Positions 625 through 54,378 of a stretch of 64,000 nucleotides of DNA are shown in pieces. The notes under the pieces were generated by a model. It saw only the letters and a list, made by a program, of their open reading frames with translations, did not search any database and had not been told where the DNA came from. The stretch spans positions 69,262,748 to 69,326,747 of the forward strand of contig NC_057718.1 of the NCBI RefSeq assembly GCF_004010195.1. Reading direction: 5' to 3'. This DNA is from Chiloscyllium plagiosum. Taxonomy: Eukaryota. The position numbers and the translations under genes are program-made. The first letter of the stretch is position 1. Each line of letters opens with the position of its first letter.

Positions 625-1575
625 TCATAAGATGTTAAGAGTAGAACTCAATTATTCAGTCCATCATGTCTGCTCCATCATTCAATGTGATCATGACTGA
701 TCATGACTGATAGTCAACTCCACTTTCCTGCTTTATCCTTCTAACCCTTGATTCCTTTACTGACTAAACATCTGCCAATCTGCCAGGCACAACCACCTGA
801 TGAAGGAGCAGCGCTCCAAAAGCTAGTGCTTCCAATTAAACCTTTCGAACTATAACCCGGTGTTGTGTGATTTTTAACTCTGCCAATCTCAGCATTGAAT
901 ATACTTAACTACCCAGACTCAACAGCCCTCTGCAGTAATACATTTCACAGATTTACTGTCCTCAGAGAAGAAATTGCTCCTCATCTTATGTTAATGGACA
1001 ATTTCTTATCCCGAGGTGATATCCTCTGTTTGTAGACTCTCCCGCTAGGAGAAACAACCCCTCAGTACCCTGTCTAGGCCCTGAATGTTTGATTGAGGTC
1101 ACATCTCATTTTTCTAAATTCCAAAGAGTACAACCTAACCTACTCAACCTCTGCTGGAAAGAAAATACCTCAATACACAAATGTCAACATAGTGAACCTT
1201 CTCTGGACTGATTCCAATGCCAGTATATATTTGCTTAGGTAAGAAGATCAATACTGTTCATAGTATTTGGAGAAGGGTGGGGAGGGCTTGTTGTCTAACA
1301 AGTGCCTTGTATAATTTTAGCAAGTTTAATCTTTTTTAACTCTGTACCCATTCCACTTGAAATAAAGATTTACCTCTCTTATTACCTACTGAACTTGGAT
1401 GCTGCCTTTCTGTTATTCATGCAAGCAGACTCCACCAAATACCTCTGTGCTGCAGCTTTCTGCTGTCTTTCACCATTTAAAAAATAGTCAGTTCTTCTAT
1501 TCTGCCTGTCAAAGTGCATAGCCTCACATTTTCCTGCATTATATTTCATTTGTCAAGTTTTTGTCCACCCACTTA
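625..1575 (-). mobile_element. Old CR1 LINE 3' fragment, interrupted by a Penelope-like insert at about 782-878
   Basis: Similar to the other CR1 3' ends in the window (e.g. 50217-51925); many stops. Confidence 0.7.
782..878 (+). mobile_element. Short Penelope-like (pLTR) insert with hammerhead motif; TSD TCTGCCAATCT (771-781/879-889)
   Basis: Direct-repeat flanks; CAC-CTGATGA-A-GGAGC-agc-GCTCC-aAAA-GCTA-GTG at 794-828; same family at 17745-17870 and 33775-33963. Confidence 0.75.
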
Positions 1576-1925
1576 AGCCCCTCTACAGAATCTTTGAGCA
1601 GAATATATTTGGACCCTGAGCAATGTGCGTCCCAATGGCATGATGCCTGGCAGAATCAGGAGAAAGGTTTGGCTATGCCTATCTTGATGCCAGGAGCATC
1701 TTGCTGCATCCTTTAGAGTTTTGTCAAGCAGGAGGTGTTTATGGTGATTATATGATCTTGTTAATGCTACCACTCACTTATTAAAATTTTGTTTTCTATC
1801 TTACCAAGCACATCATAAAAGCTAGTCATGGAGAATCTTGACATGGAAGTTACAGCAGGTACTTGGTGATTTCAGCTCACCACTGGCAGTAACCAGCATC
1901 CATGTTGCTGAGTACCAAACAGCAT

Positions 1926-2061
1926 AAGCCCTTCCTTTTATCTTAGCCTGCTGGACACACTTTCCTCATTCCTGAAGAAGGGCTTATGCCCGAAACGTCG
2001 ATTCTCCTGTTCCCTGGATGCTGCCTGACCTGCTGCGCTTTTCCAGCAACACATTTTCAGC
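1926..2061 (+). mobile_element. Penelope-like pLTR insert, TSD ACCAAACAGCAT (1914-1925/2062-2073)
   Basis: Exact 12-bp TSD; sequence matches the terminal repeat attached to GIY-YIG fragments elsewhere in the window. Confidence 0.85.
1972..1999 (+). ncRNA. Minimal type I hammerhead ribozyme motif (Penelope-associated)
   Basis: CTGAAGA-A-GGGC-ttat-GCCC-GAAAC-GTC: CUGANGA core, 4-bp stem II, GAAA, palindromic ACGU stem III and GUC cleavage triplet. Confidence 0.75.
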
Positions 2062-2107
2062 ACCAAACAGCATCTCAAGGCTTGATTCATGGGCATCAGC
2101 TGAGTCT

Positions 2108-2431
2108 GAAAATGTGTTGCTGGAAAAGCGCAGCAGGTCAGGCAGCATCCAAGGAGCAGGAGAATCGACGTCGGGCATGAGCATTCGGGCATGAGCCCTT
2201 CTTCAGGAACGAGGAAAGTGTGTCCAGCAGGCTAAGATACCGTCGTGTTGCTATGGTCTGGCGATGGAGGAGTCCAAGGACCTGCATGACCTTGGTGGAG
2301 TGGGAGGGGGAGTCGAAGTGTTGAGCCACGGGTAGTTGGGTTGGTTGGTCTGGGTGTCCCAGAGGTGTTCTCTGAAACGTTCCGCAAGTAGGCGGCCTGT
2401 CTCCCCAATATAGAGGAGGCCACATCGGGTG
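2108..2431 (-). mobile_element. Penelope-like insert (GIY-YIG fragment + pLTR), TSD CAGCTGAGTCT (2097-2107/2432-2442)
   Basis: Exact 11-bp TSD; minus strand contains LY(W/I)GETGRLL..F..H and PVAQHF endonuclease segments homologous to 10254-10484. Confidence 0.85.
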
Positions 2432-3287
2432 CAGCTGAGTCTACCCTTTATCCATGGGAACTACCATCTGACATTGGCCAAATGTCACAATCATCCTAGC
2501 ACCTCCTCAATCAACTTGTAATCCACTGAGGAACTGTGTACTTGCAGAACAGGATATATGAGTTACTCGTGTTGATAGGCAGCAGCAGGGGCATCTTGCA
2601 GTATGGCACACCAGGACATGAGTTTAACTCTTACAGAAAATGCCTTGGCAAAAATATTAGACTTGAATTCAGCTAAATTTCTATGTTGGTTAGAAGAAAG
2701 GGATTAGTCTACAGTCTAGCTGTGGCCACTATCAGTTTTGAGGTCCTGGTACTGGCATCAGTCAGGGGTACAGTCCTCTGACAATCTCAGCTATGGTCAG
2801 TCATCAGTTTGACCACTAGGGGATCTGTCTGTCTACACTCTGGGGAGTAGACAATGGGCCTTGTCTACTGGGCACTCTGGTTATCTGTCCTGTAGGGCTG
2901 GCACAAGCAGTCAGTGGAATCAGCTTGATGGGGGAAAGCTCAGGATCCATGTCTGCTGGATGATAGAACTTTGTAGGGTCAAATATTGGTCAAAGGCAGA
3001 ACAGTAGCATTGGTGCTAGCTAAAGTAACATTGTCACTTCAGTGATGCAGTGGTTAGCAGCAATAGAGGGAAACACTGGCCAAAAGCATCCCATCATTTG
3101 TAGAACTTCGAAGGATGCTGTCACTGTCATGTAAGTATGATGATGGATTCTAATGAATACATTGGAAAGTAGAATGGCTGAGATGGGTCTGGGATCTGAA
3201 GGGGGTCAGAATGAAGCAGACACTCTGTTTTGGATGTAATATGTTGGTCACTCAGCCCAGTGTGACCTTCACTAAGTTGGTGCACAT

Positions 3288-4105
3288 AGAGCCATAGAAA
3301 GATGAGGTTGTACAGCACAGAAACAGACCCTTCTGTCCAACTTGTCCATGCCGATCACATATCCTAAATTAATCCAGTCTCGTTTGCCAGGATTTAGTCG
3401 AAACCCTTCCTATTCATATATCCATCTAGATGCCTTTTAAATGTTGCAATTGTACCAGTCTCAACCACTGCCTCTGACAGTTCATTCTGTTCATGCACCT
3501 GTGTGTGAAAAAGTTGCCTCTTAGGTCCCTTTTAAATCTTTCCCCTTTCACCTTACACCTATGCCCTCTAGTTTTGGATTCCACTACGCTGGGAAAAAGA
3601 CCTTGATTATTCATCCTACCTATGTCTCTCATGAAACTTTAAATCTCTCTAAGGTCACCCCTCAGCCTCCAATGCTATGGGAAAATAGCTCCAGCCTATT
3701 CAGCCTCTATGTATAGCTCAAACCCTCTAACCCCAGAAATAAATCTTTTCTGAACTGTTTCAAGTTTAAAACTGGCTTTCCTAAAGCAGGGAGAGCAGAA
3801 CTGAAAGCAGTATTCCAAAAGGGGCCTGACCAATATCCTGTACGCTGCAGCATGGCATCCCAACTCCTATTCTCAATGCATTAATCAACAAAGGCAAACA
3901 TACCAAACATCTTCTTCACTACCCTGTCTACCTGTGACTCCACTTTCAAGGAACTATGCATCTGCACCATTAGTCTCTCTGTTCGGCAACAGTCCCCGAA
4001 GCCCTACCATTAAATGTATAAGTCCGGCTCTGATTTGCCTTACCAAAATGCAACACATCACGTTTATTTAAATTAAACACCATCTGCCATTCCTTGGCTC
4101 ATTGG
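3288..4105 (-). mobile_element. CR1 LINE 3' fragment
   Basis: ORF 3426..3632 LFPSVVESKTRGH..KVKGERFKRDLRGNFFT, the CR1 ORF2 C-terminus. Confidence 0.85.
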
Positions 4106-4438
4106 TCTATATTATGCCCATAGCTGTGGTGAAACTGACCATAGAGCTGGAAATGATGTGAGTTCTGAAGCTTGGAACATACTTTGTGGGTTGGCCTTCT
4201 GTATAGTCCAGACAGTGTGCGGAATCATTCTGGAGTGCTGTGCTTTGCACAATTGGAGCAAGTATTGTGAAAGAAGCCTTGTAGCTGGAATAGCTTAGCT
4301 GCATTGGGTGCTACAAGGCAGACAGGACTTGAGTGATAACTTGATTCCAGTAAATGCAAGCTGGGATAGAAGACCATCCTCCTCATATTTGTCACTGTGT
4401 CTGTAGACACTTCTTAAATCAAACATTAGTCTACAATT

Positions 4439-4565
4439 CCTGAAGAAGGGCTTATGTCCGAAACGTCGATTCTCCTGTTCCCTGGATGCTGCCTGACCCG
4501 CTGCGCTGTTCCAGCAACACATTTTCAGCTCTGATCTCCAGCATCTGCAGACCTCACTTTCTCCT
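4439..4565 (+). mobile_element. Penelope-like pLTR insert with hammerhead motif
   Basis: TSD CATTA(G/A)TCTACAATT at 4424-4438/4566-4580; CTGAAGAAGGGCTTATGTCCGAAACGTC. Confidence 0.8.
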
Positions 4566-4580
4566 CATTAATCTACAATT

Positions 4581-6150
4581 ACTCCAGATTCTGGATTAGT
4601 GGTGCTGGAAGAGCACAGCAGTTCAGGAAACATCCGAGGAGCAGTAAAATTGACATTTCGGGCAAAAGCCCTTCATCAGGAATACAGGCAGAGTGCCTAA
4701 AGGGTGGAGAGATAAGCTAGAGGAGGATGGGGAGAAAGTAGCATAGAGTACAATAGGTGAGTGGGGGAGGGGATGAAGATGATNNNNNNNNNNNNNNNNN
4801 NNNNNNNNNNNNNNNNNNNNNNNNNNNNNNNNNNNNNNNNNNNNNNNNNNNNNNNNNNNNNNNNNNNNNNNNNNNNNNNNNNNNNNNNNNNNNNNNNNNN
4901 NNNNNNNNNNNNNNNNNNNNNNNNNNNNNNNNNNNNNNNNNNNNNNNNNNNNNNNNNNNNNNNNNNNNNNNNNNNNNNNNNNNNNNNNNNNNNNNNNNNN
5001 NNNNNNNNNNNNNNNNNNNNNNNNNNNNNNNNNNNNNNNNNNNNNNNNNNNNNNNNNNNNNNNNNNNNNNNNNNNNNNNNNNNNNNNNNNNNNNNNNNNN
5101 NNNNNNNNNNNNNNNNNNNNNNNNNNNNNNNNNNNNNNNNNNNNNNNNNNNNNNNNNNNNNNNNNNNNNNNNNNNNNNNNNNNNNNNNNNNNNNNNNNNN
5201 NNNNNNNNNNNNNNNNNNNNNNNNNNNNNNNNNNNNNNNNNNNNNNNNNNNNNNNNNNNNNNNNNNNNNNNNNNNNNNNNNNNNNNNNNNNNNNNNNNNN
5301 NNNNNNNNNNNNNNNNNNNNNNNNNNNNNNNNNNNNNNNNNNNNNNNNNNNNNNNNNNNNNNNNNNNNNNNNNNNNNNNNNNNNNNNNNNNNNNNNNNNN
5401 NNNNNNNNNNNNNNNNNNNNNNNNNNNNNNNNNNNNNNNNNNNNNNNNNNNNNNNNNNNNNNNNNNNNNNNNNNNNNNNNNNNNNNNNNNNNNNNNNNNN
5501 NNNNNNNNNNNNNNNNNNNNNNNNNNNNNNNNNNNNNNNNNNNNNNNNNNNNNNNNNNNNNNNNNNNNNNNNNNNNNNNNNNNNNNNNNNNNNNNNNNNN
5601 NNNNNNNNNNNNNNNNNNNNNNNNNNNNNNNNNNNNNNNNNNNNNNNNNNNNNNNNNNNNNNNNNNNNNNNNNNNNNNNNNNNNNNNNNNNNNNNNNNNN
5701 NNNNNNNNNNNNNNNNNNNNNNNNNNNNNNNNNNNNNNNNNNNNNNNNNNNNNNNNNNNNNNNNNTGGACTGTTCTACGTAGCCAACAAAGAGACAGGCA
5801 TTGCTGGGGCCCATACGTGTGCCCATGGCTACCCGTTTGGTCTGGAGGAAGTGGGAGGATTCAAAGGAGAAATTGTTAAGGGTGAGGACCAGTTCGGCCA
5901 AACGAATGAGAGTGTCGGTGGAAGGGTACTGTTGGGGACGTCTGGAGAGGAAAAAACGGAGGGCTTGGAGGCCCTGGTCATGGTGGATGGAGGTGTAGAG
6001 GGATTGGATATCCATGGTAAAGATGAGGCGTTGGGGGCCGGGGAAACGGAAGTCTTGGAAGAGGTGGAGGGTGTGGGTGGTGTCTCGAACATATGTGGGG
6101 AGTTCCTGGACTAGGGGGGATAGGACAGTGTCGATGTAGGTAGAGATTTG
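4581..6150 (-). mobile_element. Penelope-like retroelement: RT fragment, gap, 3' pLTR with hammerhead
   Basis: 5766-6150 encodes ELPTYVRDT..IFTMDIQSLYTSI..LNNFSF..QTKRVAMGTRMGP (PLE RT motifs); minus-strand CTGATGAAGGGCTTTTGCCCGAAA at about 4656-4679. Linkage across the gap is assumed. Confidence 0.85.
4784..5765. other. Assembly gap (N)
   Basis: Run of N. Confidence 1.
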
Positions 6151-6800
6151 TTTGTTCTGGTCTTTTCCTTTTACTACAAGCCATTTTCCAAAGTCCAAAG
6201 GTCATCTTCAGCTCACAATTCCCAGTCATCACATGTTTACCTGTCCATGCTTTCACCTTGTTTTGGGAAGTTTTTAAAATAGATTTTAAAGTCAGAGAGC
6301 TTAGGCCACTCCAGGTCCGATTGTGCAGCTATAAAGACATATAATAAACTGTTCCTGGTTCAAATTTCTACAGGGCTATGTTGTGCATTTTTTTATACCT
6401 TATAATCAGTCCCAAACATAATAACTGGCAATGAGGGTGAATCGCAGCACACTAATTGTGTGCTGTCATTGTTTTTTGAAAGAAGAGAGGAGATTGATCA
6501 TTGCCCGGACTTTGAAAATGGTGCAGGATTTTGGAAATAGCATGACAGACCTGTTGGGGGACCAACCAAAATGCCAAGGGAAGTAATCACAAGGTGACTC
6601 AGTCTGTGGTCGATCCCAGGGAAGAAGGGTACTCACTGGGGAGTGAACAGAGAGTGCCAGTTGTGAGGGGACTCAGGCTGCAGCCAACATTTGAAAATGG
6701 GAGTACTCACCCGTGAGTTTACCGAAATCATCATGGAGAGTGTACACCAAGGGGCTTAGGCTGTGAGCAGCTATCTAGCTTCAAGTGGCAGGAAAACAAA

Positions 6801-7020
6801 ATGGCAGGTCAATTTGAAGTAATGGGATCTTTTAACAAAGAGACACAGAAAGCTGAATTCTGTACGCCAAATATTTTAATGCAAACAGAGTGGCTGAAGA
6901 TTTAGTGGTACCAGTTTACTTGAGCACTGGTAGGAGCAAGACTTTGCAATTCTAAGGAGTCTAGTGCAATAGAGAACTCAGTAAACAAGACATATAAAGA
7001 ACTATATGAAGTGTTGAAAT
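6801..7020 (+). mobile_element. Decayed Gypsy (Mag-like) gag N-terminus
   Basis: Broken frame MAGQFEVMGSFNKET...YFNANRVAEDLVVPVYLS..GA(K)TFAILRSLVQ resembles Mag-clade gag starts. Confidence 0.5.
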
Positions 7021-9727: not shown

Positions 9728-11640
9728 GCACAGTTCTACCACCTCTGTTGGCACTTACCACCCATAATATTAAAAATCCGCCTCTCATATCTCCATTAAA
9801 CTTACCCCTTCTTACCTTAAATAAATATCCCCTCATAATTAATATTTCTACTTTGGGAAAAAAGCTCTGACTCCATTCTATCCATGCCTCTCATAATTTA
9901 GTACCACGTTGTCCCTCATCCTCACGTTTGTCTAATCCTTCCTCATAGCTAATAACTTCCAAACCAGGCAACATCCCGGTAAATGTTTCTGTACCCTCTC
10001 TGAAGCTTGCGCATCTGTAGATAATATGGTACCTAGTACCAATACTTCTTTTGCTGTGGCAAACAGCAATGTACACAATATTCCAAATGTGGTCTAACTA
10101 AAGTTTGATACAGAGTGTGGTGCTGGAAAAACACAGCAGGTCAGGCAGCATGCAAGGAGCAGGAAAATTGACGTTTCAGGCAAAACCTGCACCCACACTT
10201 CCCCCCTCACCTCTGTCCAAGGCCCCAGAGGAGGCTTCCCCATCCATCACATTTTGACCTGCACTTCCATACATGTCATTTATTCTATCCGTTGTTCCCG
10301 ATGCGGTCTGCTCTATATTGGAGAGACCGGGCGCCTACTTGCAGAGTGTTTCAGAGAGAATCTCTGGGACATCCGCACCAATCAACTCCACTGCCCTGTG
10401 GCCGAACACTTTAACTTCTCCTCCCACTCTGCCGAGGACATACAGGTCCTGGGCCTCCTCCATCACCACTCCCTTACCACCTGACGCCTGAGAAAGAATG
10501 CATCATCTTCCGCCTTGGGACCCTCCAACCCCAGGCCATCAATGTGGATTTCACCCGTTTCCTCATTTCCCCTCTTCCCCACCTTATCCCAGTTCCAACC
10601 TTCTGGCTCAGCATTGCCCTCATGAACTGTCCTACCTGTCCATCTTCCTTTCCACCTATTCGCTCCACCCTCTCCTCCGACCTATCACCATTACCCCCAC
10701 CTTCATCCACCTATCTCACTCTCACCTACCTTTCCCCAGCCCCACTTCCCTCCCACTAATTTCTTCACCCCGAGGCTCCCAGCCTTACTCGTGATGAAGG
10801 GCTTTTGCCTGAAATGTCGATTTTCCTCCTTCTCAGATGCTGCCTGACTTGCTGTGCTTTTCCAGCACCACACTCTTGACTCTAATCTCCTGCATCTGCA
10901 GCACTCACTTTCGCCTCGTAAAGTTTGATACAGCTGCAACATGACTTGCCAATTTTTATACTCTTTATAATTATTTTACACTTTTATACAAGCATGCTAT
11001 ATGCCTTCTTGACTACCTTATTCATATGTGCTGCCACTTTCAGGGAACTGTGGATTTCTTCGCCTAGATCTCTCTATATGTTGTTTCTATAAAAGGTTTT
11101 ACCATTTACTGTATACTTTCCTCCTGCATTAGGTCTCCAAAAATGCATCACCTTGCATTTGTCTGGATTGAATACCATCTGCCATTTCTCTGCCCATGAC
11201 TCTGGCCAATCCTCCTCAGTCTCTGCAACTCCCCAAATCTTCATGTTTTCCACTAACTTACTAAATTAGGCCATCTACATTTTCCTACAAGTCATCTATG
11301 TATATTGCAAACAAAGGGGGCCCAGAATTGATCTCTGTGGAACAACTCTGATCACAGATCTCAGAAAAACACTTTTTCACTGCCACAGTCTGTCTTCTAT
11401 TACTAAGCCAGTTCTGTATTTACCTTACCAGTTCATGCAGATCTCAGGTGACTTCACCTTTTGTATCAGCCTGCCATGAGAGACCTTGTCAAAAGTCCAC
11501 ATACACAACATTAACCATCCTCAATTGATCATTTTTTGTCACTTCCTCAAAACACTCAATCAAGTTTGTGAGACATGACCTTCCTTGCACAAAAAGATAC
11601 TGCAAATTGCGAATAAGTCCTCATTTTCCTAAATGTGCAT
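9728..11640 (-). mobile_element. Old CR1 LINE RT/3' region interrupted by Penelope insert
   Basis: CR1 ORF2 homology on both sides of 10114-10918 (MLQLYQTLVRPHLEY junction). Confidence 0.75.
10114..10918 (+). mobile_element. 5'-truncated Penelope-like element: inverted partial pLTR + GIY-YIG endonuclease + pLTR; TSD TAAAGTTTGATACAG
   Basis: 15-bp TSD at 10099-10113/10919-10933; ORF 10254..10484 TCTSIHVIYSIRCSRCGLLYIGETGRLL..FRE..PVAEHFN; hammerhead-like motif at about 10791-10818. Confidence 0.9.
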
Positions 11641-13119: not shown

Positions 13120-13290
13120 AGTAGTTTAGATGGATCAGTTTTTGTTCAATGTGTGCAGGAGGGTTTTCTGACACAGTATTTAGACAGGCCAACAAGGGGC
13201 TATACCATATTGGATTTGGTGCTGGGTAATGAACCCAGCCAGGTATTAGATTTGGAGATACATGAGTACTTTGGTGATAGTGACCACAGC
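13120..13290 (+). mobile_element. CR1 endonuclease fragment
   Basis: CVQEGFLTQY..RPTRG..ILDLVLGNEP..FGDSDH; homologous to 14265-14480. Confidence 0.75.
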
Positions 13291-13476
13291 TGAAAATGTG
13301 TTGCTGGAAAATCGCAGCAGGTCAGGCAGCATCCAAGGAGCAGGAGAATTGATGTTTTGGGTATGAGCCCTTCTTCAGGAATGATTCCTAAAGAAGGGCT
13401 CATGCCCGAAACGTTCGATTCTCCTGCTCCTTGGATGCTGCCTGACCTGCTGTGCTTTTCCAGCAACATATTTTTC
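13291..13476. mobile_element. Inverted pair of Penelope pLTR fragments (foldback) with two hammerhead-like motifs
   Basis: 13291-13380 is the reverse complement of 13386-13476. Confidence 0.85.
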
Positions 13477-14264: not shown

Positions 14265-14553
14265 AGAAGAAAGGATTGCGAGGATGATTCAAGAGAAGAG
14301 TGAAAGTAATAGGGTGGTTGTTATGGGGGACTTTAACTTTCCAGATTTTGATTGGGAAAGCTATAGCTCAAGTTCGTTAGATGGGTCGGTGTTTGTCCAA
14401 TGTGTGCAGGAGGGTTTCCTGACACAATATGTAGACAGGCCAACAAGAGGTGAGGCCATACTGGATTTGGTTCTGGGTAACGAACCAAATCCAGTATGGC
14501 CTCACCCCTTGTTGGCCTGTCTACATATTGTGTCAGGAAACCCTCCTGCACAC
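14265..14553 (+). mobile_element. CR1 endonuclease fragment ending in a 73-bp near-perfect hairpin
   Basis: ORF 14200..14586 VVMGDFNFPD..; arms 14401-14473 and 14481-14553 with one mismatch. Confidence 0.85.
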
Positions 14554-14569
14554 AATATCGCAACTTTTT

Positions 14570-15130: not shown

Positions 15131-16077
15131 TTTGATTACCCAATTCCATTTTAATGTTATTATTCAATCTGCTTCCACTAGCCTTTCAGGTAATGCATTC
15201 CAGATCATGATGATCTGCTATGTTTAAAGAGAAACGAATCCTCACATTGCCTTTGATTCTTTTGTCTTTTGCTTCCTAGAAGTAGGAGCATATGATCTTT
15301 CTGGTTTATCTCAAATAATCAGCCTTCATTTGCAAACCTGGGTATTAGGTCTTACTGGTCATTTCAGTTGCTACTGGAGAGGTAGTTATAAATGGAGACA
15401 GCGCTTCTCCACATGTAACTGCATAGATGCACATTTGGCAAGATGTGCGCTTTATTTTTTACAAATCCAATAGGTGTCTCAAGTAGTGGTCATACTCTAT
15501 ACTAGTTGAACACAATGGGACTTGCTGATCAGATTTCATTCAATCCTAGTTTCCATTTGTTGGCTATTTGCCTTGAATTCAGGAACACTCATTCCCGTTT
15601 ACGTTCCCTTTTCCTATAGATCAATGATGACGCGCTTTAGCCAATATAGATAAGATCAACTAACTCAGCATGAGCAAAACCTGGGTTCAAAAACAAAAAT
15701 AGAGATTGCAGGAAAAGCTCAGTCAACCTCGTAGCATCTGTGGAGAGAAATTAGAGTTAACATTTCGGGTTGAGTGACCCTGACTCAGAACACCAGGTTG
15801 TTCCCTCCGAGCATGGTATGGTACAGTGCCAGTTGGTATTCTCATCCTCTGCCTTGTCATGGGAGGTATTTTAAACATCTTGTCCCAGTCACTAGAGAGC
15901 ATTTTATAAAGTATTGGAAAAGTTGGCACCCTATCATGCAGAGTTACAAATAACAGTGATACCGGACCCTGGGAAATCTGTGGACTGCGACCTGCCTAGT
16001 CACTCGGCTGAAGAAGACAAAGATAGTAGTGAAAGGTATTAATAGGAAAAATATCTATTGTACACTCCCTCCCCACC

Positions 16078-17744: not shown

Positions 17745-17870
17745 TGATTTGGAGGTGCCAATGTTGGACTGGGGTGGACAAAGTTAAAAAGCACACAACA
17801 CTAGGTTATAGTCCAACAAGTTTATTTGGAGGTACTAGCTTTCGAATGATTGCTTCTTTATCAGGTGGTT
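17745..17870 (-). mobile_element. Penelope-like pLTR insert (same family as 782-878)
   Basis: Reverse-complement similarity to 786-878. Confidence 0.7.
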
Positions 17871-18357: not shown

Positions 18358-18575
18358 TGGTGAGTTTTGAGATTTGTAGCTCAGGTTAAGGGACTGAATG
18401 TAGGTTTGCTTGCTGAGCTGGGAGGTTCATTTTCAGAAGTTTCATCGCCATACTAGGTAACATCTTCAGTGAGCCTTCGGAAAGATTCATCCGGAGGGTC
18501 ACTGAAGATATTACCTAATATGGTGACGGAACGTCTGAAAATGAACCTTCCAGCTCAGCGAGCAAATCTACATCC
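18358..18575. mobile_element. Penelope-like foldback insert with two hammerhead motifs; TSD ACCAA(G/A)TGTGTGT
   Basis: TSD 18345-18357/18576-18588; TCA-CTGAAGA..stem..G(G/A)AACGTC-TGA on both strands (18499-18538 plus; about 18433-18472 minus). Confidence 0.75.
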
Positions 18576-18589
18576 ACCAAATGTGTGTG

Positions 18590-18805
18590 TCACCATAGTC
18601 TTACCAGACTGTAGGGGCTGCTCTCTCATTTTGAGAGAAGTGACTGCTGGTGATTTAACCTGAGCGCCACCAGACCTCAGGCAAGGGAAGAGGTTGAGAA
18701 GGAGAGTCCTTCATGGTAACCTCAAACCAGTGAAGGGAATTGAACTCATGCTGTTGATATCACACTACTCTGTAAACCAACAATCCAGCCAACTGAGCTA
18801 AATCA
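18590..18805 (-). mobile_element. tRNA-derived SINE (non-HE1 family)
   Basis: Head TAGCTCAGTTGG..GAGTTCAATTCC; homologous to 27361-27575. Confidence 0.7.
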
Positions 18806-29485: not shown

Positions 29486-29749
29486 TAAGTTTTCTATCCA
29501 TCCTGTAAACAATGTCCATCACTGGGAAGCTTTTTCATAACAAGATGAAGATGGAGAAAGGGAGATGCATTGGCACAATGGTGTATCCCTGCTTGATGTT
29601 TGTCTTGATCTCAAAGGATTCTGTCATATTAATCATCAGTAAGGCGAATACAGTTTGTCATGGAGGAGATAGAGGATATTGATGAATTCCATTGGACAAC
29701 TAGCCTTTGGCGGGTCTTCCATAGCACTTTCCGATTGACTGAGTCAAAA

Positions 29750-30419
29750 CCCAAAGAGAGAAAATGCTGGAAAATCTCAGCAGGTCTGGCAGCATCTGTA
29801 AGGAGAGAAAAGAGCTGATGTTTCGAGTCTAACTGACCCTTTTCCAAAGCTAAAAAAAGGGAGAAATAGGGAGGTGTTTATACTAGGCTGAGAGAAGGTA
29901 AGTCATGGCTCCAGAAGCAAAGGTACCAATATTGCTACCTTTATTGCCACCTTTGCTTCTGGAGCCATGACTCACCCTCTTTCAGTCTAGTATAAATGCC
30001 TCCCTATTTCTCCCTTTTTTTTAAGCTTTGACAAAGGGTCAGTTAGACTCAAATGGCCCTCGATGTTGCGCCGATCCAAGCCCGCCTAACCTACACTAGC
30101 CCACTATCCTCCATATGCTTATCCAATGCCCGCTTAAATGCCCATAAAGAGGGAGTGTCCACCACTGCTACTGGCAGGGCATTCCATGAACTCACGACTC
30201 GCTGAGTAAAGAACCTACCCCTAACATCTGTCCTATACCTACCACCCCTTAATTTAAAGTTATGCCCCCTCATAATAGCTGACTCCATATTTGGAAAAAG
30301 GTTCTCACGGTCAACCCTATCTAAACCTCTCCTTACAGATGCTGCCAGACCTGCTGAGATTTTCCAGCATTTTCTCTTTTGGTTTCAGATTCCAGCATCC
30401 GCAGTAATCTGTTTTTATA
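29750..30419. mobile_element. Penelope-like foldback insert, TSD GACTGAGTCAAAA, carrying a young CR1 3' fragment (30054-30327, minus)
   Basis: Exact 13-bp TSD at 29737-29749/30420-30432; long inverted arms around about 29935. Confidence 0.85.
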
Positions 30420-33329: not shown

Positions 33330-34260
33330 CTATTAGCAGGAATAAGCAATTCAGCACCTCAAGTCTGCTCAGCCTTTGGTATGATCACAGTTGGTCTAAT
33401 CTAGCATCGACTCCACTTTCCTGCCGCTCTCTGTGACCTTCAACTAATTACTAATTAAAAATTGTCCATATCCTTTCATTTATTCAATATTCCAGCATCC
33501 ACCACATACTGGGGCAGTGAATTTCACAGATTCACAGGACTTTCAGAGAAGTAATTTCACCTCATCTCTGTTTTAATTTTGCTACCTCTTATCCTAAAAT
33601 TATGACCTCTCATTCTAGATTTACCACATGTGGAAACATGCTAAACTCCAAGGAGTATAGGCCTAACCTGCTCCATCTCTCTTCATAAGAAAACCCTCTC
33701 ATCTCTGGAATCAATGCAGTGAACAAAAACAGAAGTTACTGGAGAAACTTTGGAGGTCTGCCATCATCTGTGGACAAAGTTAAATATCACACAGTACCAG
33801 GTTATAGTCTAACAGGTTTATTTTGAAGCACTAGCTTTTGAAGCGAGATCATCAGGTGATGAAGAAGCAATGCTTCGAAAGCTAGGTCTTCCAAATAATC
33901 CTGTTGGACTATAATCTGTGATTTTTAACTCTGTCCATCCCAGTCCAATACCGGCTCCCCTAAATCATCTGTGGAGAGAAAGCAAAGACAATATTTTGGG
34001 TCCAGTGATCCTTCTTCTGAAAACCGCTGAGTTTTTCCAGCCATTTTTGTTTTTGTTTCTGGTTCCTACATCCACATTTCTTTGGGTTTTTGTTTAGTGT
34101 CAATCTAATGAATTTCCCCTGAACTGCTTCCAATGCAACTATATCCCTCCTCAGGTAAGGTAACCAAAATTGTATTCCAGGTGCAGCCTCACTAATGTTT
34201 TGTACAGTCGCAGAGACACTTCCCTACTCTTACATGTATTCCTTCAGCAATAAATGCCAA
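33330..34260 (-). mobile_element. Old CR1 3' fragment with nested Penelope-like inserts (33725-34090)
   Basis: CR1 3' homology; inner foldback 33775-33963 flanked by exact TSD ATCATCTGTGGA (33763-33774/33964-33975), with GTGATGA-A-GAAGC-aat-GCTTC-GAAAGCTA. Confidence 0.75.
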
Positions 34261-39469: not shown

Positions 39470-40520
39470 AGGCCCTGGTCTTGTGTGAAAGTATTTGCTG
39501 ACATCTTCAATTTCACCTTGCTACAATTTGAAATCTCCACCTAGTTCAAGAAGACCACCATCATCCCAGTACCAAAGAAAACATATGCAATGTGCTTCAA
39601 TGACTATCACCCAGTGGCTTTGAACTCCGTAACCATGAAGTGATTTGAGAGGTCATTCCCACATCAACACTAGCCTGCCTTGATCCTCTGCAATTTGCCT
39701 ATCAATGAAACAGGTCCCAACGGATGCCATTTCCCTCACCTATATTCACCCCTGAAACATCTGGATAACAAGAATACCTGCATCGGGTTCCTGCTCTTCG
39801 ACTACAGCTCTGTCTTCAGAACCATAATCCCAACCAAAGTAATCTCAAAACTTTGTGACCTAGGTCTCTGCTTCACCCTCTGAAACTGAATCCTCAGCTT
39901 CCCGAGTCCACAGTCAGTGAACTTAGATAATGGCACCTCCTGCACGACAATCCTCAACACTGGTGCCCCACAAGGACGTGTACTCCCTGTATACCTATGA
40001 CTGTGTAGCTAAATTCCATATTAATGCCATCAACAAATTTGCTGATGACACCACTATTGTAGGCCAGAAATCAAACAATGATGAGTCAGAATACAGGAAG
40101 GAGATAGAGTGCTTGGTGTTGTGGTGCAATGACAATAATCTAGGTTCTTTACTCAGCGAGTCGTGAGTTCATGGAATGCCCTGCCAGTAGCAGTGGTGGA
40201 CTCTCCCTCATTTTGGGCATTTAAGCGGGCCTTGGATAGGCATATGGAGGATAGTAGGCTAGTGTAGGTTAGGTGGGCTTGGATCGGCGCAACATCGAGG
40301 GCCGAAGGGCCTGTACTGCGCTGTATTCTTCTATGTTCTATGTTCTATGTTCTATGATAACGAACAATCTGTCCTGGACCTCCCATGTAGATACAGCAGT
40401 CAAGAAGGCACAACAATGCCTCTTCTTTCTCAGCTTTGGAAGTTTGGCAGGTCCATAAGGATGCTCACTAACTTTTGCAGATGCACCATAGTAAGCATTC
40501 TATCCGGGTGCATAATGGCT
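39470..40520 (+). mobile_element. Rex1/Babar LINE RT fragment, interrupted by young CR1 3' end (40141-40356)
   Basis: VFADIFN..FKKTTIIPVPKK..NDYHPVAL; LLFDYSSVF.TIIP; YSLYTYDC..KFADDTTIVG. Confidence 0.8.
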
Positions 40521-40522
40521 TG

Positions 40523-40830
40523 AACATAGAACACAGAACATAGAACACAAAACGTTACAGTGCAGAACAGGCCCTTCAGCCATTGATGTTGTGCTGACCT
40601 GCGGAATCAATCTGAAGCCCATCTAACCTACGCTATTCCATCCCTTTCCATATGCCTATCCAATGACCATTTAATTGTCCTTAAATTTGGCAAGTCTACT
40701 ACTGTTGCGGGCAGTGCATTCCACTTTCTGAGTAAAGAAACTATCTCTGACATCTGTCCTATATCTATCACTCCTCAATTTAAAGCTATGCCCTTTGTGC
40801 TGGCCATTGCCATCCGAGGAAAAAGGCTCT
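40523..40830 (-). mobile_element. CR1 3' fragment
   Basis: Homologous to 20308-20600; (TTCTATG)n tail. Confidence 0.85.
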
Positions 40831-40849
40831 CACTTGGCATGGCATCAGG

Positions 40850-40977
40850 ATTCCTGATGAAGAGCTTATGCTCAAAATGTTGACTCTCCTGTTCCTTGGA
40901 CGATGCCTGGCCGGCTGTACTTTTCCAGCACACCTTTTGACACTGATCTCCAGCATCTGCAGCCCTCACTTTCTCCA
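40850..40977 (+). mobile_element. Penelope-like pLTR with degenerate hammerhead
   Basis: CTGATGA-A-GAGC-ttat-GCTC-aAAA; homologous to 4439-4565. Confidence 0.8.
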
Positions 40978-40979: not shown

Positions 40980-43900
40980 TGGGGAACAGGCAATATTGGA
41001 TTTAGTGTTGTGCAAAGAGGCAGGCTTGATCATAGAACCTAAGGTGGAGGAACCCTTAGGAGGCAGTGAACATAACATGATCAAATTTACTCTGCAATTT
41101 GAAAGAGAGAAGATAGAATCAGAGGTAACAGTATTTCAGCTGAATAAAGGCAACTACAGAGGCATGAGGGAGAACTTGGGTAGAATTGACTAGGAGAGGA
41201 GCCTGGTGGGAAAGACAGTGGAACAGCAATGGCAGGAGTTTCTGGGAGTAACTCAGGAGACAGAGCAGAGATTCATCGTGAGGTAAAAGAAGCACGGTAC
41301 AGGGAAGGTGAGGCAACCATGGCTGACTAGGGAAATCAGAGATAGCATGAAAGCAAAACAGAAGCATATAAAGTAGGGAAGAACTGTGGGAAACCAGAGG
41401 ATTGGGAAAATTACAATGACCAACAGAGGGCAACAAAAAATGAAAAAGGAGGGAGAAGATTAAATATGACAGTAAGCTAACCGTTAATATAAAGGAAGAC
41501 TGTAAGAGTTTCTTTCGATATATAAAGGGGAAAAGAGAGGTAAAAGTGGACATTGGGCCACTGGAAAAAGACGCTGGAGAGGTAGTAGTGGGGAACAAAG
41601 AAATGATTGAGGAACTGAATAATTACTTCGCATCAGTCTTCACAGTGGAAGACACAAGTAATTTCCCAAAACTTCAAGAGAGTGAGGGGGCAGACCTGAG
41701 TATGGTAGCCATCAACAAGGAGAAGGTGCTAGAAAAATTGAATGAGGTGAAGGTGGATAAATCACCTGGACTAGATAAGACTACACCCCAGCGTTCTATG
41801 GGAGATAGCCGAAAAGAGGCTGGAGGCATTAGTAGTAGAAGCAGGGTGGTCCCAAAGAACTGGAAAATCACTAACATGACACCCTTGTTTAAAAAAGGAG
41901 TAAGGCAAAGGATGGAAAATTACAGATTAATTAACCTAACCTCAGTCATGGGTAGGATACTGGCTTCCATTGTGAAAGATGAGATTTCTGAATACTTAGA
42001 AGTGTGTGGTAAAATGGGGCAGAGTCAACATGGTTTCATAGAACATAGAACATAGAAGAATACAGCGCAGTACAGGCCCTTTGGCCCTCGATGTTGCGCC
42101 GATCCAAGCCCACCTAACCTACATTAGCCCACTATCCTCCATATGCCTATCCAATGCGCATTTAAATGCCCATAATGAGGGAGAGTCCACCACTGCTACA
42201 GGCAGGGCATTCCATGAACTCACGACTCGCTGAGTAAAGAACCTACCCCTAACATCTGTTCTATACCTACCCCCCCTTAATTTAAAGCTATGCCCCCTTG
42301 TAATAGCTGACTCCGTACGTGGAAAAAGATTGTTGGCTGCTTGCTGTTCCAGACATGTATGTTCGACAGCAACTCCCAATATTTGTGAGCACACTCCAAA
42401 GGTAATAACCTACAACCCATCATGGATGGACATTGACATTGGATATCCTCATGGCACAACTGCAAGCCCTCACAATACAGGTCTAATGTAATGTTATACA
42501 ACTGCTGCATACTGGAGAGAGCCATCACCTTTCATTGTAATGCTGCTACCTGCACACATTGTACACAGAGGAAAGCAGCCAGCTCATGGATTGGACCAGG
42601 GCTCATCTCAGGGCTCCTCTCTTAACGCACGCTCACTTTGCACTGACTTGCATGATCACAATGTCGTTGGTTTGTTTTGCCCAACCTTCTAACCCCTCTT
42701 CCAGGTCATTTATAAAAATGACAAACAGCAATGGTCCCAAAACAGATCCTTGCGGAACACCGCTAGTGACGGCACTCCAAGATGAACCTTTGCCATCAAC
42801 TACTACCCTCTGTCTTCTTCCAGCCAGCCAACTCCTAATCCAAACCTCCAACTCACCCTCAATGCCATACCTCCGTATTTTTTGCAGTGGTCTACCATGG
42901 GGAACCTTATCAAACGCCTTACTAAAATCCATATACACCACATCTACCGCTTTCTCCTCGTCCACCTCCTTAGTCACCTTCTCAAAGAATTAATAAGGTT
43001 TGTGAGGCACAACCTGCCCTTCACAAAACCATGCTGACTATCCTTGATCACATTATTCCTATCCAGATGTTCATAAATCCTATCCCTTACAATTCTCTCT
43101 AAGATTTTGCCCACAACAGAAGTGAGACTCACCGGCCTATAGTTACTAGGGTTATCCCTACTCCCCATCAAGGGTAGGTCATGCCTGTCAAATTTGCTAG
43201 AATTCTTTGAGGAAGTAATGAGCAGAGTAGACCAAGGAGAACTGATGGATATTATCTACCTGAACTTCAAGAAGTCCTTTCACAAGGTGTCACACAGGAG
43301 GCTACTGAGTAAGATAAAGTCCCATGGTGTTAGAGGCGTGGATAGAAGATTGGCTTTCAGGCAGAAAGCAGAGAGTGGGGATTTCTCAGGATGGCAGCCA
43401 GTGACAAATGGTTTTCCATCAGGAGAAACCGAGGAATGCAGATGGTGAATATCAGAGTTGAGAGTGTGGTGCTAGAAAAGCACAGCAGCTCAGCCAGCAT
43501 CTGAGGAACAGGAGAATAAACGTTTCAGGCATAAGCTCTTCATCAGGAAGCCCTTCATCAGGAAGGGTGTTGTGCAAGACTCTGTTGGAACCACAACTTT
43601 TCCCTTTATACATTAACAATCTCAGTGAAGGAATTTAGGGCATTTTGGCTAAGCTTGCAGATGATACAAAGGTAGGTAGAGTGACAGGTAGCATTGAGGA
43701 GGCGGGGAGGCTGCAGAAGAATTTGGACAGATTAGGAGCGTTGGCAAAGAAGTGGCAGATGGAGTACAGTGTGGGAAAGTGTGAGGTCATGCACCTTGGT
43801 AGGAATAATAGAAGCATGGACTATTTTCTAAATGGGGAGAAAATTCAGAAGTCTGAAGTGCAAAGAAATTGGAGAGTTCTAGTCCAGGGTTCTCTTAAGG

Positions 43901-48889: not shown

Positions 48890-49560
48890 CAAAGTTCAGC
48901 ATGTTTTGCTAAGGGGAGGTCATGTCTTACCAATTTGATTAGGTTTCTTGAAGAGGAGACCAGATATGTAGATAAGGGCAATGTTTTTAATGTAATTTAT
49001 GTGGACTTCAGCAAGACTTTTCGTTATAGCTAACATGGGAGACTGAAAGCAAATGTAAAAGCCCATGGGATCCAAGGAAATTTGGCAAATTAATTCCATA
49101 ATTCTCTGAGTGGCAGGAAGCAGAGGTGATGTTTAGGGTTTTTTATTGGAAGCCTGCATTCAGTAGGATTCCACAGGACTCAGTGTCACAGCCTGTCATA
49201 TAAAGCATTTAAACTTGAATGTAAGAGCATTGATCAGTAAGTTCACATCTGTTCTGAAAATTGTTGGTGTGGAAAATAGTGAGGATAGCCTTAGAAACCA
49301 GGAAAATATAGAGTCACACAGCACGGAAACAGTTTTCATTCTGACCGGATTTCTCCAATTAAACCAGTCTGATTTGCCTATGTTTGGCCCATATCCCTCT
49401 AAATCTTTCCTATTCATGTATCTATCCAAATGTCTTACAAGGTCAATGCTCAACCTCCTATGCTCCAGGGCAAACATCACAGCTTATCCAGCCTCTCCTT
49501 ATAACTCAAATCCTCCAGTCCTGGTTACATCCTCATAAATCTTTTCTGCACCCTTTCAAA
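48890..49560. mobile_element. CR1 fragments (plus RT piece, minus 3' end)
   Basis: GRSCLTNL/YVDFSK-like motifs; CR1 3' UTR. Confidence 0.65.
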
Positions 49561-50099
49561 TTCCAAAAGCAAGGCAGTCAAAAATTGTAAACTAGAAAAC
49601 ATGGCAATATGGCACTGCCTCCAATCATGAAGGTCTACTGCCTTACTTTGTCTCACTCTACTTAATGAATGGCACCCATCAAGCTATGTATTACCAAGTG
49701 TTTCTCTCCAATGGAGAGAGACGTGTATGTTCCTTTGTGGATAATGGTTTATGAAATCAGTTCTGATACCATTATTATAGATTGCTGTCTAAATTTGTAT
49801 CTGGGATTCTTCATACTGTGAACTATTGATTATAAACATGTTTTTTGAAAAGGTATTGAATGGATGACTAGCATTTCCTCACAATCATCGTTGGCTATTT
49901 ATTACATCTCCAAGAGCCAGAAACATGCATGCATGTGTGGCATAGTTCCGAAATCTTTGTTAACATTGAGAGATTAACGCAATTATTTCTCTTCAGTTGT
50001 CTTTTATTCATTGTTGATGAACTATAAACCAAATTCAAATGCAAAATATTCGTAATGCTGGAAATTTGAAGTGAAAACAGAGAATGCTGCATTTTACAT

Positions 50100-52650
50100 A
50101 TATGTTGCATAGACAGGCTGGTCAGATGGGCTGATTAGTAGCAAATGGAATCTAAATTTAAATAATGTGAGGTGATGCACTTGGGCAGGACAAACAAGGC
50201 AAGTGAATACGTAAAGCCATAAGACATTGGAGCAGAAATTAGGCCATTCAGCCTATCGAGTCTGCTCCACCATTCAATCATGGCTGTTAAGTCTCTCGAC
50301 ACCATTCTTCCGCTTTCTCCCCATAACCCTTGATCCCTTTGACAATCAAGAACCTATCTATTTCAGTCTTAAATCTGTTCAATGACCTGGCCTCCACTGC
50401 GTTCTGTGACATTGAATTCCATAGATTCACTGTTCTCTGGTTGAAGACGTTTCTCCTTATCTCCATTCTAAAAGGTCTTTCTTTTACTCTAAGGCTGTGC
50501 CTTGAGTCCCAGTCTTTCCTACCAATGGAACCATCTTCCCAATGTCTACTCTCTCCAGGCAATTCAGTATTCTGTAAATTTCAATTAGATTTCTCCTCAT
50601 CCTTCTAAGCTCCATCGAGTATTCTCATGAACCTCCTCTGAGCTCGGTCCAGGGCCAGTACATCCTTCCTGAGATATGGTCCCAAAACTGCACACAATAC
50701 TCCAACTGGGTCTGACCAGGGCCTTATAGAGCCACAGAAGTACATTCCTGCTTTTATATTCAGGTCCTTTCAAAATAAATGCCATCATTACATTTGCCTT
50801 CCTAACCACCTGCTGACTCAACCTGCAAATTTACTTTGAGAGAATCCTGGAATAGAACTCCCAAGTCTCTTTGCACTTCAGACTTCTGAATTTTCTCTCC
50901 ATTTAGAAAATAGTCCATGCCTCTATTCTTCCTGCCAAAGCGCATGACCTCACACGTTGTACTCCATCTGCCACTTCTTTGCCCATTATCCTAACCTGAT
51001 CAAATCCTTCTGCAGCCTCCCTGCCTCCGCAATGCTACCTGTCCCTCTACCTATCTTTGTATTGTCTGAAAACCTAGCTAGAATGCTGTCAGTTCCTTCA
51101 GCTAGATTGTTAATGTATAAAGTGAAAAGTTGTGATCCCAAAACTGAGACTTGTAGAACTGGTTTCCATCCTAAGAAGAACCCTTTTATCCTTACTCTCT
51201 GCACCAGACAGCCAAGCTTCTATCATGTTAGCACCTTGCCTTTAATGCCATGGGCCCTTATCTTACTCAGTAGCCTCTTGTACGGCACTTTGTGAAAGAT
51301 CGTCTTGAAGTCCAGGTAAACTTGGTCTAACTTGCTCGTAACTTCTTCAGAGAATTCTAGCAGACTTATCAGGCATCACCTCCCCTTGATGACTATACTG
51401 ATTTTGCCTATTTTACCATACACTTCCAAGTAATCAGAAACCTTACCCTTCACAATGGATTCCAGTACCTTACCCATGACTGAGGTTAGGCTAATTGGTC
51501 TGTAATTTTCCATCCTTTGCCGTACTCCCTTTTTAAACATGGTTTTAATGTTAGCGATTTTTTAGTCCTTCGGTACCCTCCCTTTCGTTAGTGATTTCTG
51601 AAAGATCACCAATAACGCCTCCACTATTTCTTTAGCTATGTCCCTTAGAATTCTGGGGTGTAGTCTATCTGGTTCAGGTGATTTATCCACCTTCAGGTCA
51701 TTCAGTTTTTCTAGCAACTTCTCCTTGGTGATGGCCACTATACTTGGCTCTGCCCACTCACTCTCTTATAGTTTTGGGATATTACTCATGCCTTCCACCG
51801 TGAAGACTGATGCGAAGTAATTATTTAGTTCCTCAGCTATTTCCTTGTTCCCCACTAGTATCTCTACAGCATCATTTTCCAGCGCCCCAATGTCCACTTT
51901 TGCCTCTCTTTTACCATTTATATATGATGAACGGATGGACCCTGGGAAACACTAAGGATCAGTGGGACATTGGTGTGCATGTATACCTGTCCCTTAAGGT
52001 AACAGGATAGGTGGATAAGTGGTTAAGAGGGCATAAGGTACACTTGCCTTCATTAGCTGAAGCATAAGGTTTACAAGCACGGAGGTGATATAATTGTATA
52101 AAAGATTAGTTAGGCCATAGCTTCTGCAATGTGTGCAGTTCTGGAATCCACATTACAAGAGGGAAGTGATTGCACTGGTTAGGGTGCTGAGGCGGTTTAC
52201 CAGACTATTGCCTGGTCTGGTGAGTTTCAATTATGAAGTGAGATTGGACAGACTGGGTTGTTTTCCTTGGAGCAGAGGAGATTGAGAACGGGCACAATTA
52301 AAATGTTTAAAATTATGAGGAGCATAGAAAGTGTAGTGAGGAAGAAATGTTTTGCTTTGATGGAGGGATCATTGATCATGGAGCACAGATTTAAGGTAAA
52401 GGATAGGAAATTTTGAGGTGATGTGAAGGAAAATCTTTTCACCAAGAGGATGGTGAGAATCTGAAACTCACTGCCTGTAAAGGTGGTAGAGGCAGAAATC
52501 CTCATAATATTTAAGATGTATTTAGATGTACACATGTGATTCCAAGGCATACAAGGCTATGGGGGCCAAGTACTGAAAAATGGGATCAGAGTAGTTAGGT
52601 TTTTGACTGACCCAGACTTGATAGGCCAAAGGGTCCTTTTTTCTATGATT
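50100..52650. mobile_element. Old plus-strand CR1 3' part interrupted by a minus-strand CR1 (50217-51925)
   Basis: ORFs 50287.., 50597.., 50986.. on minus; plus-strand CR1 resumes at about 51925. Confidence 0.8.
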
Positions 52651-53029
52651 AAACTTTTACCATCTTTGCAATTGAAGTGGTTCTTAAATTCAGTCCTGAA
52701 AAGCCTTGATCTAATTTTTAGGTTATGACCCAAACCTGTCAATACTCTTGGAACAGATAGTTACAATGATAATCATACCAAAAAAAAAAGTACTCGCATT
52801 CTTTTCTATGTTCTTTGTAGTCAAATATCTGAATGCAGCTGGTCCCTGATACTGCCATCGTAACCTGCTTTATAGGGCTCGATGCAGAACAAGGGTGGTG
52901 AAGCCACCTTTTTCATGACATCACATGATCTAGTAAGCCCCTTAACTGCAGCAGTAAACAGCATAGTGGTTAACACAGAAAGGTAGTTTCAAAGAAATGT
53001 TTGTATATATTAATATAGCATTTTAGTTT

Positions 53030-53430
53030 TTGCTCACTCTTGGGATGTGGGCAATGCTGGCTGGACCAGCATTTTTATTGCCCCTTCCTAGTTACCCTTG
53101 AGAAGGTGATGGTGAGCTTCTTGAACCGCTGCAGTCCACATCTTGTAGGTAGACCCACAATGGGAGGGAATTCCAGAATGTTGTCCCAAGCAATTGTGGA
53201 GGAATGGCAATATATTCTCAATACCCTAACTTGGAAATATACCACCATTCTTTAACAGTCATTGGGTCAAAATCCTAGAATTCCCTCCCTACTGGCATTG
53301 TGGGTTAACCCAAAGCAAGTGAACTGCAGCGATTCAAGAACGCAGCTCACCACCACCTTCTCAAGGACAAATAGGAAAGGACAAATGCTGGCCAGCCAGC
53401 AACACCCAAGTTCCACAAATGAATTTTTTT
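53030..53430. mobile_element. Two L2/CR1-group 3' ends in inverted orientation
   Basis: 53030-53215 is a diverged reverse complement of 53225-53430. Confidence 0.6.
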
Positions 53431-53436
53431 TTAATT

Positions 53437-54225
53437 GGTTAGGCCACTGTTGGAATATTGCATGCAATTCTGGTCTCCTTCCTATCAGAAAGATGTTATG
53501 AAACTTGAAAGGGTTCAGAAAAGATTTACAAGGATGTTGCCAGGGTTGGAAGCTTTGAGCTATCAAGAGAGGCTGAACAGACTGGGGCTGTTTTCCCTGG
53601 AGCGTCGGAGGCTGAGGGGTGACCTTATAGAGGTTTACAAAATTATGAGGGCCATGGATAGGGTAAATAGAACAAAGTCTCTTCCCTGGGGTCGGGGAGT
53701 CCAGAACTAGAGGGCATAGGTTTAGGGTGAGAGGGGAAAGATACAAAAGAGACCTACGGGGCAATGTTTTCACACAGAGGGTGGTACATGTATGGAGTGA
53801 GTTGCCAGAGGAAGTGGTGTAGGCTGGTACAGTTGCAACATTTAAAAGGCATTTGGATGGGTATATGAATAGGAAGGGTTTGGAGGGATATGGGCCGGGT
53901 GCTGGCAGGTGGGACTAGATTGGGTTGGGATATCAGGTCAGCATGGACAGGTTGGACCGAAGGGTCTGTTTCCATGCTGTACACCTCTATGACTCTGGAA
54001 ATGTCTCAGATTTGGAATTTTGGCAACACATCAAAACGAGGCCAGTGCCACCGAATTGCATTAATTTAAAGTCATCAGATGATTATATGAATCAGAAAGG
54101 CTTAGAGGAATATGAGCCAAGTGCTGCAAATGAGACTAGATTAGGTTGAGATATCTGGTTGACATGGACGAGTTGGACTCAAGGGTCAGTTTTTGTGCTG
54201 TACATCGGTATGACTTTATGACTCT
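53437..54225 (+). mobile_element. CR1 (HER1-like) 3' fragments
   Basis: ORF 53435..53710 VRPLLEYCMQFWSP..GLFSLERRRLRGDL; (CTATGACT)n-like tails. Confidence 0.88.
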
Positions 54226-54234
54226 AAATTACCA

Positions 54235-54378
54235 GGAGAAAGTGAGGACTGCAGATGCTGGAGTTCAGAGTCAAGAGTGTGGTGCTGCAAAAGAATAGCA
54301 GGTCAGACAACATCCGAGGAGCAGGAGAATCGACATTTCTGGCATAAGCCCTTCATCAGGAATGAGGCTTGTGGGCCG
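54235..54378 (-). mobile_element. Penelope-like pLTR with hammerhead motif
   Basis: Minus strand CTGATGAAGGGCTTATGCCAGAAATGTC. Confidence 0.8.

Follow-up and report, generated by a model that had tools for sequence, protein, structure and literature searches.

Minimal hammerhead ribozymes of type I have been described in the pseudo-long terminal repeats (pLTRs) of Penelope-like elements (PLEs). They have no real helix III, a palindromic 15.2–16.2, an extra base between A9 and position 10.1, and G10.1–C11.1, and several consensus families may be found in one genome, mostly as single truncated copies or as close pairs on opposite strands (Cervera et al., 2014, PMC4209133). The endonuclease-positive (EN+) PLEs of the Neptune and Penelope/Poseidon types encode a reverse transcriptase (RT) with a C-terminal GIY-YIG endonuclease, and their insertions are marked by heavy 5´ truncation, an inverted 5´ copy, a tail of 30–40 bp, target duplications, and palindromes where the inverted copy joins (PMC8557442; PMC3846280; PMC11167929). 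A further related group, the metazoan non-LTR (long terminal repeat) retrozymes, is short, non-coding, and Penelope-related, and carries type I hammerheads (PMC7229834; bioRxiv 10.64898/2026.07.22.740005). All of these traits recur in the genome examined here; the stretch of DNA analysed is a 64-kb window from the shark Chiloscyllium plagiosum (contig NC_057718.1, positions 69262748–69326747; the assembly comprises 3.56 Gb, with gaps).

We conclude that the motifs in this window are very probably minimal type I hammerhead folds located in the pLTRs of three EN+ PLE lineages. The window copies are 5´-truncated and mostly mutated, and the ribozyme is likely to be active only in the RNA of an intact master element, as a predicted dimer and perhaps aided by protein. 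The kind of element, the diversity of families within one genome, the opposite-strand pairs, and a U3–A8 variant of the core are already published; the host and the richness are new. Literature searches, covering listings and passages of PMC6155905, returned no paper on hammerheads in shark PLEs; shark motifs may be tabulated in the supplements to PMC4209133 and to the 2026 preprint. One chondrichthyan has been sampled for retrozymes (bioRxiv 10.64898/2026.07.22.740005).

The motifs in the window

The sequence-only reading of the window placed hammerhead motifs at 16 sites, all of which carry the motif or a decayed version of it. Family profiles gave 24 matches; among those absent from that reading are family A near 2206 (−) and at 10117–10187 (−), family E at 30028 (+), and, at 30327, 33721, and 34020, pieces of the tail alone. 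The insertions are listed below, where the position given for a core is that of its first base.

789–894 (+): short pLTR end, family B; core 797 with G12 lost; 11-bp target duplication
1939–2061 (+): pLTR end, family A; intact minimal hammerhead at 1972
2102–2440 (−): 3´ end and endonuclease-region remnant, family A; hammerhead near 2206 disrupted by an internal duplication
4435–4564 (+): short copy, family A (hammerhead and tail); intact core 4440; 15-bp target duplication, its end one base before the core
4582–6201 (−): 5´-truncated element, family A; RT fragment 5770–6201 (RVT_1, E 1.3e-4), N run, 3´ untranslated region (UTR), hammerhead 4679
10098–10911 (+): element, family A; inverted short arm 10117–10187 (−), GIY-YIG remnant (weak, E 0.1), 3´ UTR, decayed hammerhead 10791, tail
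13272–13474 (both strands): back-to-back pair, family A; cores 13378 (−) and 13388 (+), both mutated, with the hinge just 5´ of both
15684–15792 (−): short copy, family D; decayed core 15788
17754–17870 (−): short copy, family B; decayed core 17864
18369–18602 (both strands): back-to-back pair, family C (Penelope/Poseidon-like); cores 18469 (−) and 18502 (+), both mutated
29734–30418 (both strands): two-armed insertion, family E (U3–A8 core); cores 29847 (−) and 30028 (+); 11-bp target duplication
33721–34085 (both strands): nested cluster; back-to-back pair of family B, 33764–33961, with cores 33855 (−) and 33856 (+), among D/E-type arms 33721–33772 (−), 33959–34021 (−), and 34020–34085 (+); family D core 34019 (−)
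40848–40976 (+): short copy, family A; decayed core 40854
43423–43565 (−): short copy, family A; core 43546; 15-nt duplication of its start
54233–54364 (−): copy, family A; core 54359, stem II broken

Judged by eye, the core, stem II, and palindrome are all intact in only two of the 20 core-bearing copies (1972 and 4440). A generic hammerhead descriptor, requiring a C3–G8 core and a palindromic helix III, matched the window three times, one match being the duplicated start at 43561 wrongly parsed, and found nothing in 20 shuffles. In the right arm of the family E insertion (core 30028, +), the hammerhead is interrupted by the 270-bp 3´ end of a long interspersed nuclear element (LINE) at 30054–30326, with about a dozen bases removed.

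Conservation of the fold

At the level of families, the core is conserved throughout (N3–N8 pair, UGA, A9, GAAA, U16.1, and H17), and an extra base precedes G10.1 as in the published PLE minimal hammerheads. It had been proposed that the stems co-vary between families and that stem III is a short palindrome, and both proposals are borne out. For this comparison, 15 natural representatives were parsed by their cores, since family B came out displaced by one column in a MAFFT alignment; the rows are related, such that the shuffle counts are not probabilities. Of 150 stem cells, 138 pair, against a shuffle mean of 85, and none of 2000 shuffles reached the observed value. Two-sided change is found at 9 of the 10 pairs, a value attained by 60 of 2000 shuffles (mean 7.3). 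The representatives have no more pair types than shuffles do (977 of 2000 as high). The palindromic stem III is present, with C–G versus G–C at 15.2–16.2. Family A has, in addition, a stem I of 3–4 bp with which it had not been credited, and stem II is short (4–5 bp) in families A, B, D, and E, unlike in the motifs of Cervera et al. (2014, PMC4209133).

The N3–N8 pair is U3–A8 in family E. When the core positions were left free, 781 copies matched, and U3 was present in 96 and A8 in all of the 100 listed; the same test on family B gave C3 in 98 and G8 in 100 of the 100 listed. Judged from these sequences, U3–A8 is a compensatory swap in the catalytic core, and as such it points to the fold having been under selection in master elements. 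The same swap has been described in Schistosoma (PMC4209133), the only paper found in a term search of the literature for U3–A8. Selection for the fold would have acted on the master elements, between families, and not on the inserted copies.

Three lineages linked to Penelope coding sequence

The identity of the motifs as hammerheads of PLE pLTRs, which had been proposed from the window, is upheld by their linkage to RT and GIY-YIG coding sequence. In family A, a sense-strand motif accompanies 16 of the 20 best RT loci out of 31,910 candidates in the RT search, and in most of the 20 the hammerhead lies ~1.35–1.65 kb 3´ of the RT match. In family A copies found via the N-terminal region, a 5´ hammerhead and the tail are followed by a likely start of the open reading frame (ORF) ~170 nt beyond the core, whereas the ORF of the Anolis PLE starts inside stem II (PMC11167929). 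Family E is joined to an RT 62–68% identical to that of family A (68% at locus L195), and RT followed by a C-terminal GIY-YIG domain is seen, in fragments, at L195, L191, and L193. A C-x4-C-xx-C linker precedes GIY-YIG in families A and E. A linker of this type between RT and endonuclease (CX2-5CxxC) marks Neptune and Nematis elements (PMC8557442), which suggests that the A/D/E lineage is of Neptune type, the linker being seen in A and E and shared with Nematis. The family C motif is found 300–400 nt downstream of a GIY-YIG domain without linker, and tblastx gave no significant protein match between families C and A; both observations suggest that family C is Penelope/Poseidon-like.

In the segment 3´ of the ribozyme, A1, A2, D, and E can be aligned with one another over 30–75 nt (E 5e-16 to 1e-5), and the corresponding segments of B and C align with no other family. 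The window thus holds three lineages (A/D/E, B, and C) in place of the at least four unrelated-looking families first proposed; of those families, A and E have related RTs. That the families share only a hammerhead skeleton is true between the three lineages but fails within A/D/E, where the downstream segment is common. Family B forms a separate lineage, putatively also of the Neptune clade. Outside the window, further hammerhead subfamilies include a C variant (L211, L067, L260), E/D-like motifs with C3–G8 (L258, L193), and A-like motifs with another stem II (L239, L250, L034, L298).

Several results weigh against this assignment. An Rfam scan of the window returned no hammerhead family at E<=10; its microRNA matches are fold-back hairpins. 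The Pfam matches (RVT_1, E 1.3e-4; GIY-YIG, E 1.5e-4 in A and 8.8e-3 in C) are all below curated cut-offs. Among the copies read there is no intact full-length ORF, the long ones being broken by N runs or stops. In family B, only the end of the endonuclease domain is seen, at two loci, with neither RT nor linker, and family D is tied to PLEs by homology to A and E and not to an ORF.

A conserved upstream ORF was considered for the shared downstream segment and rejected, the frames differing between A1 and A2; single folds, made without a shuffle control, make a stem-loop the more likely content. In families D and E, a pyrimidine tract ending in CAG, resembling a splice acceptor, is found just 3´ of the hammerhead and before the shared segment, and family E has a further AG at the edge of stem I.

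Abundance across the genome

The window is typical of this genome in motif density. Among 100 random stretches of 10 kb (951 kb in total), family profiles gave 304 matches, a few of them split copies, and 45 intact C3–G8 cores, corresponding to ~320 matches per Mb versus 388 per Mb in the window. By extrapolation, the genome holds ~1.1 million profile matches and ~160,000 intact cores, and Penelope ends make up about 3% of the sampled DNA. The generic descriptor matched 20 times in 382 kb of random genome and once in five shuffles of it. Exact family patterns were found genome-wide 44,690 times for A, 13,152 for B, 1,802 for D and E together, and 979 for C, with no match to the reversed patterns used as control. 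The portrayal of a dense and diversified self-cleaving RNA system is accordingly right as to the abundance of motifs and overstated as to self-cleavage: ~15% of matches have an intact core, and the majority occur singly or in back-to-back pairs on opposite strands.

Copy number is far above that in the cases of Cervera et al. (~60,000 exact matches and ~160,000 extrapolated intact cores, where coelacanth has ~4,000 and Xenopus 9,000; PMC4209133). Elsewhere, over 6,000 hammerhead motifs in 16 families are known from a coral, and a section title gives up to 120,000 for axolotl (PMC7229834). What this genome adds is scale, ~1 million ends and tens of thousands of identical motifs, which allows junction statistics on the role of the hammerhead in Penelope transposition and on the origin of pLTRs and inverted ends.

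Anatomy of the insertions

An inverted 5´ copy, a tail, and a target duplication are all present, as in EN+ PLEs. In families A, B, C, and E, and less clearly in D, the 3´ ends form two clusters ~35–40 nt apart that delimit the tail. They are matched by loose ends among 1861 aligned poly(A) RNA reads, at L008:1407–1408 (537 reads) and 1443–1452. The 30–40 bp tail of EN+ PLEs has been traced to reverse transcription that starts at two internal sites of uncleaved RNA (Frangieh et al., 2024, PMC11167929). By analogy with that work, reverse transcription would start inside the RNA ~90 or 130 nt 3´ of the core, and with priming downstream on uncleaved RNA every insertion would carry a hammerhead. 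Target duplications of 8–17 bp flank 21 of 58 short family A copies, compared to 3 of 200 control pairs, and also occur in E (5 of 22), B (3 of 21), and D (3 of 26).

Neighbours of the same family within 1 kb in the random stretches are predominantly back-to-back (67 pairs), with 17 on the same strand and 3 facing each other with their 3´ ends; six of the 17 are split matches of one locus. The transcript of a back-to-back pair would contain one sense motif and a long hairpin, such that a dimer partner in cis should be rare.

Ends at the edge of stem I and at the cleavage site

When 5´ ends in the random stretches were scored relative to the first core base (calibration error −0.2 nt for family A), 30 of 76 family A copies other than fold-backs ended at −16 to +2, 5 at −99 to −17, and 41 further upstream (binomial p 1.5e-17), and 33 of 35 fold-back arms ended at −18 to +3. 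Family B behaves similarly, with 8 of 23 copies and 26 of 29 arms ending at the front edge of the hammerhead; in family C just 1 of 19 ends lies within 20 nt, and a pile-up is absent. The breakpoints of family D are poorly calibrated (mean error +6 nt) and family E was without references in the scoring, so a similarity-drop analysis was used for both. In A and E, resemblance to long copies falls off beyond −4, where stem I has its first base, and in B it does so less sharply. The RNA reads have loose ends at the same place (96 reads) and ~sevenfold lower depth upstream, part of which is subfamily divergence; these ends come from passively transcribed copies and confirm the boundary, not a start site. 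A pile-up of this kind is not mentioned for EN+ PLEs in the available sections of PMC8557442, PMC3846280, and PMC11167929. The families with pile-up (A and B) and family C without it make a ready natural control.

Many complementary DNAs (cDNAs) of families A, B, D, and E would end at the 5´ edge of stem I, for which an origin of one class of template RNA at this point is a likelier reason than cleavage. The base at −4 lies in what we take to be an initiator-like context in A and D. Two observations speak against an RNA start at this base: a cap signature, in the form of an extra G at −5, is not seen (G in 11 and A in 9 of 58), and 4 of the 5 copies read from the 5´ hammerhead into the ORF reach more than 70 nt upstream. 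Transcription of fly Penelope starts 46 nt before a 75-nt intron (Schostak et al., 2008, PMC2377424) and therefore well upstream of its hammerhead. A serious alternative, to which we nevertheless grant somewhat less than an even chance, is that the folded or protein-bound hammerhead stops reverse transcription, or that joining is biased towards the short self-complementary bases before the core. The hinges of back-to-back pairs are often on short palindromes at this place, many target duplications extend over the first bases (the end is at −1 or −2 in 7 of 21), and of the 25 copies that extend beyond the tail and also reach the core, 10, or about 40%, stop at −10 to +2 while the others pass. 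Yet family C has the same fold and no pile-up, A and E have a sharp edge at −4 that is also present in the RNA reads, and a stall would be expected on entry into a structure, not after exit from it. We prefer, not strongly, a mixture of templates of which one begins at −4. One scheme that we put forward tentatively, and regard as rather doubtful, extends this mixture of templates. In the Neptune-like families, a class of transcripts would start at the first base of stem I, and reverse transcription could start near each end of the RNA. [quoted passage not shown] A dimer of both hammerheads in one RNA might then keep the two priming sites at the pair of nicked DNA ends.

The profile starts have no clear 5´-end peak at the predicted cleavage site itself. 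Among copies with long tails, starts exactly at the first base after the cut were found in 2 of the first 30 and none of a further 40 (2 of 56 scored ends overall). A targeted junction search, tallied by eye, placed 42 of 100 listed junctions at the cut base (27 when strict), compared to 11 of 42 at a control site from which 58 rows of 1-nt shifts were dropped (Fisher p 0.09 and 1.0); the excess at the cleavage site is weak and not established. In two copies, L337 and L340, the 5´ end coincides exactly with the base that follows the predicted cut, and L337 continues into the ORF start. The junction search also listed, recurrently, copies that have lost the stretch between the 5´ half of the core and the cleavage site via microhomology of 2–3 nt.

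The lack of a clear genomic footprint fits the finding in Anolis of uncleaved RNA as the main template. In that system, insertion in vitro was not impaired by mutation of the ribozyme, RNA ends did not map to the cut site, and the motif cleaves with protein present (PMC11167929). It is conceivable that the fold has been retained for a structural or protein-binding role, with no cutting in vivo. The absence of a clear peak of ends at the cut and the unimpaired Anolis mutants speak for such a role, but the catalytic core has been kept across three lineages, with the compensatory swap in family E, and the Anolis motif does cleave; we consider it improbable.

Short copies and retrozymes

The short copies had been described as retrozyme-like. 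They are instead 5´-truncated Penelope insertions with tails and target duplications, they lack head-to-tail arrays, and they interleave with long copies on a tree. Retrozymes are head-to-tail repeats with mostly canonical hammerheads and are expressed as circles (PMC7229834; bioRxiv 10.64898/2026.07.22.740005), in contrast to the pLTR ends seen here, which stand alone or back to back and carry minimal motifs. That the short copies are non-autonomous and spread by circular RNAs that they themselves release by cleavage is, in our view, very unlikely. Short copies are indeed very common (26 of 35 scored cores in D, 22 of 48 in E), and the preprint reports retrozymes in one chondrichthyan (bioRxiv 10.64898/2026.07.22.740005). 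In the family A tree (120 rows, 88 columns, poorly resolved), the short and long labels are weakly clustered, with 32 changes versus 38 in shuffles (9–11 of 500 as low), a figure biased by the sampling of RT loci, and one subclade is rich in short copies (14 of 17), which counts against their being mere truncations. On the other hand, identical rows occur in both groups, and the copies run from the edge of stem I to the tail, unlike a permuted unit from a circle, which would end at the cleavage site. No tandem hammerhead arrays occur in the window, same-strand pairs are few in the random stretches, and the same-strand loci inspected there (7 of 8) hold no array. No circular-type joint was found among the 1861 poly(A) reads, from a type of library that would hardly show circles.

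Among the loci seen, the nearest to a two-unit array is L200 (G000:C1:17709500–17714500), a direct tandem of family B of 355 bp and 97% identity with an additional inverted arm.

Other features of the window

The window is otherwise rich in LINE fragments, which we presume to be CR1, repeats resembling short interspersed nuclear elements (SINEs), and Penelope pieces. It also contains one retroviral or LTR-element remnant at ~54700–58500 (+), with an integrase core fragment at 55811–56185 (Pfam rve, E 0.0012) and an N run near 56870–57295. The frames downstream of the integrase fragment may be envelope-like, with no significant Pfam match. A near-perfect fold-back at 14401–14554, with 73-nt arms of 99% identity, consists of LINE coding sequence without hammerhead, and larger inverted pairs resembling it are found at 40172–40723 and 53034–53422.

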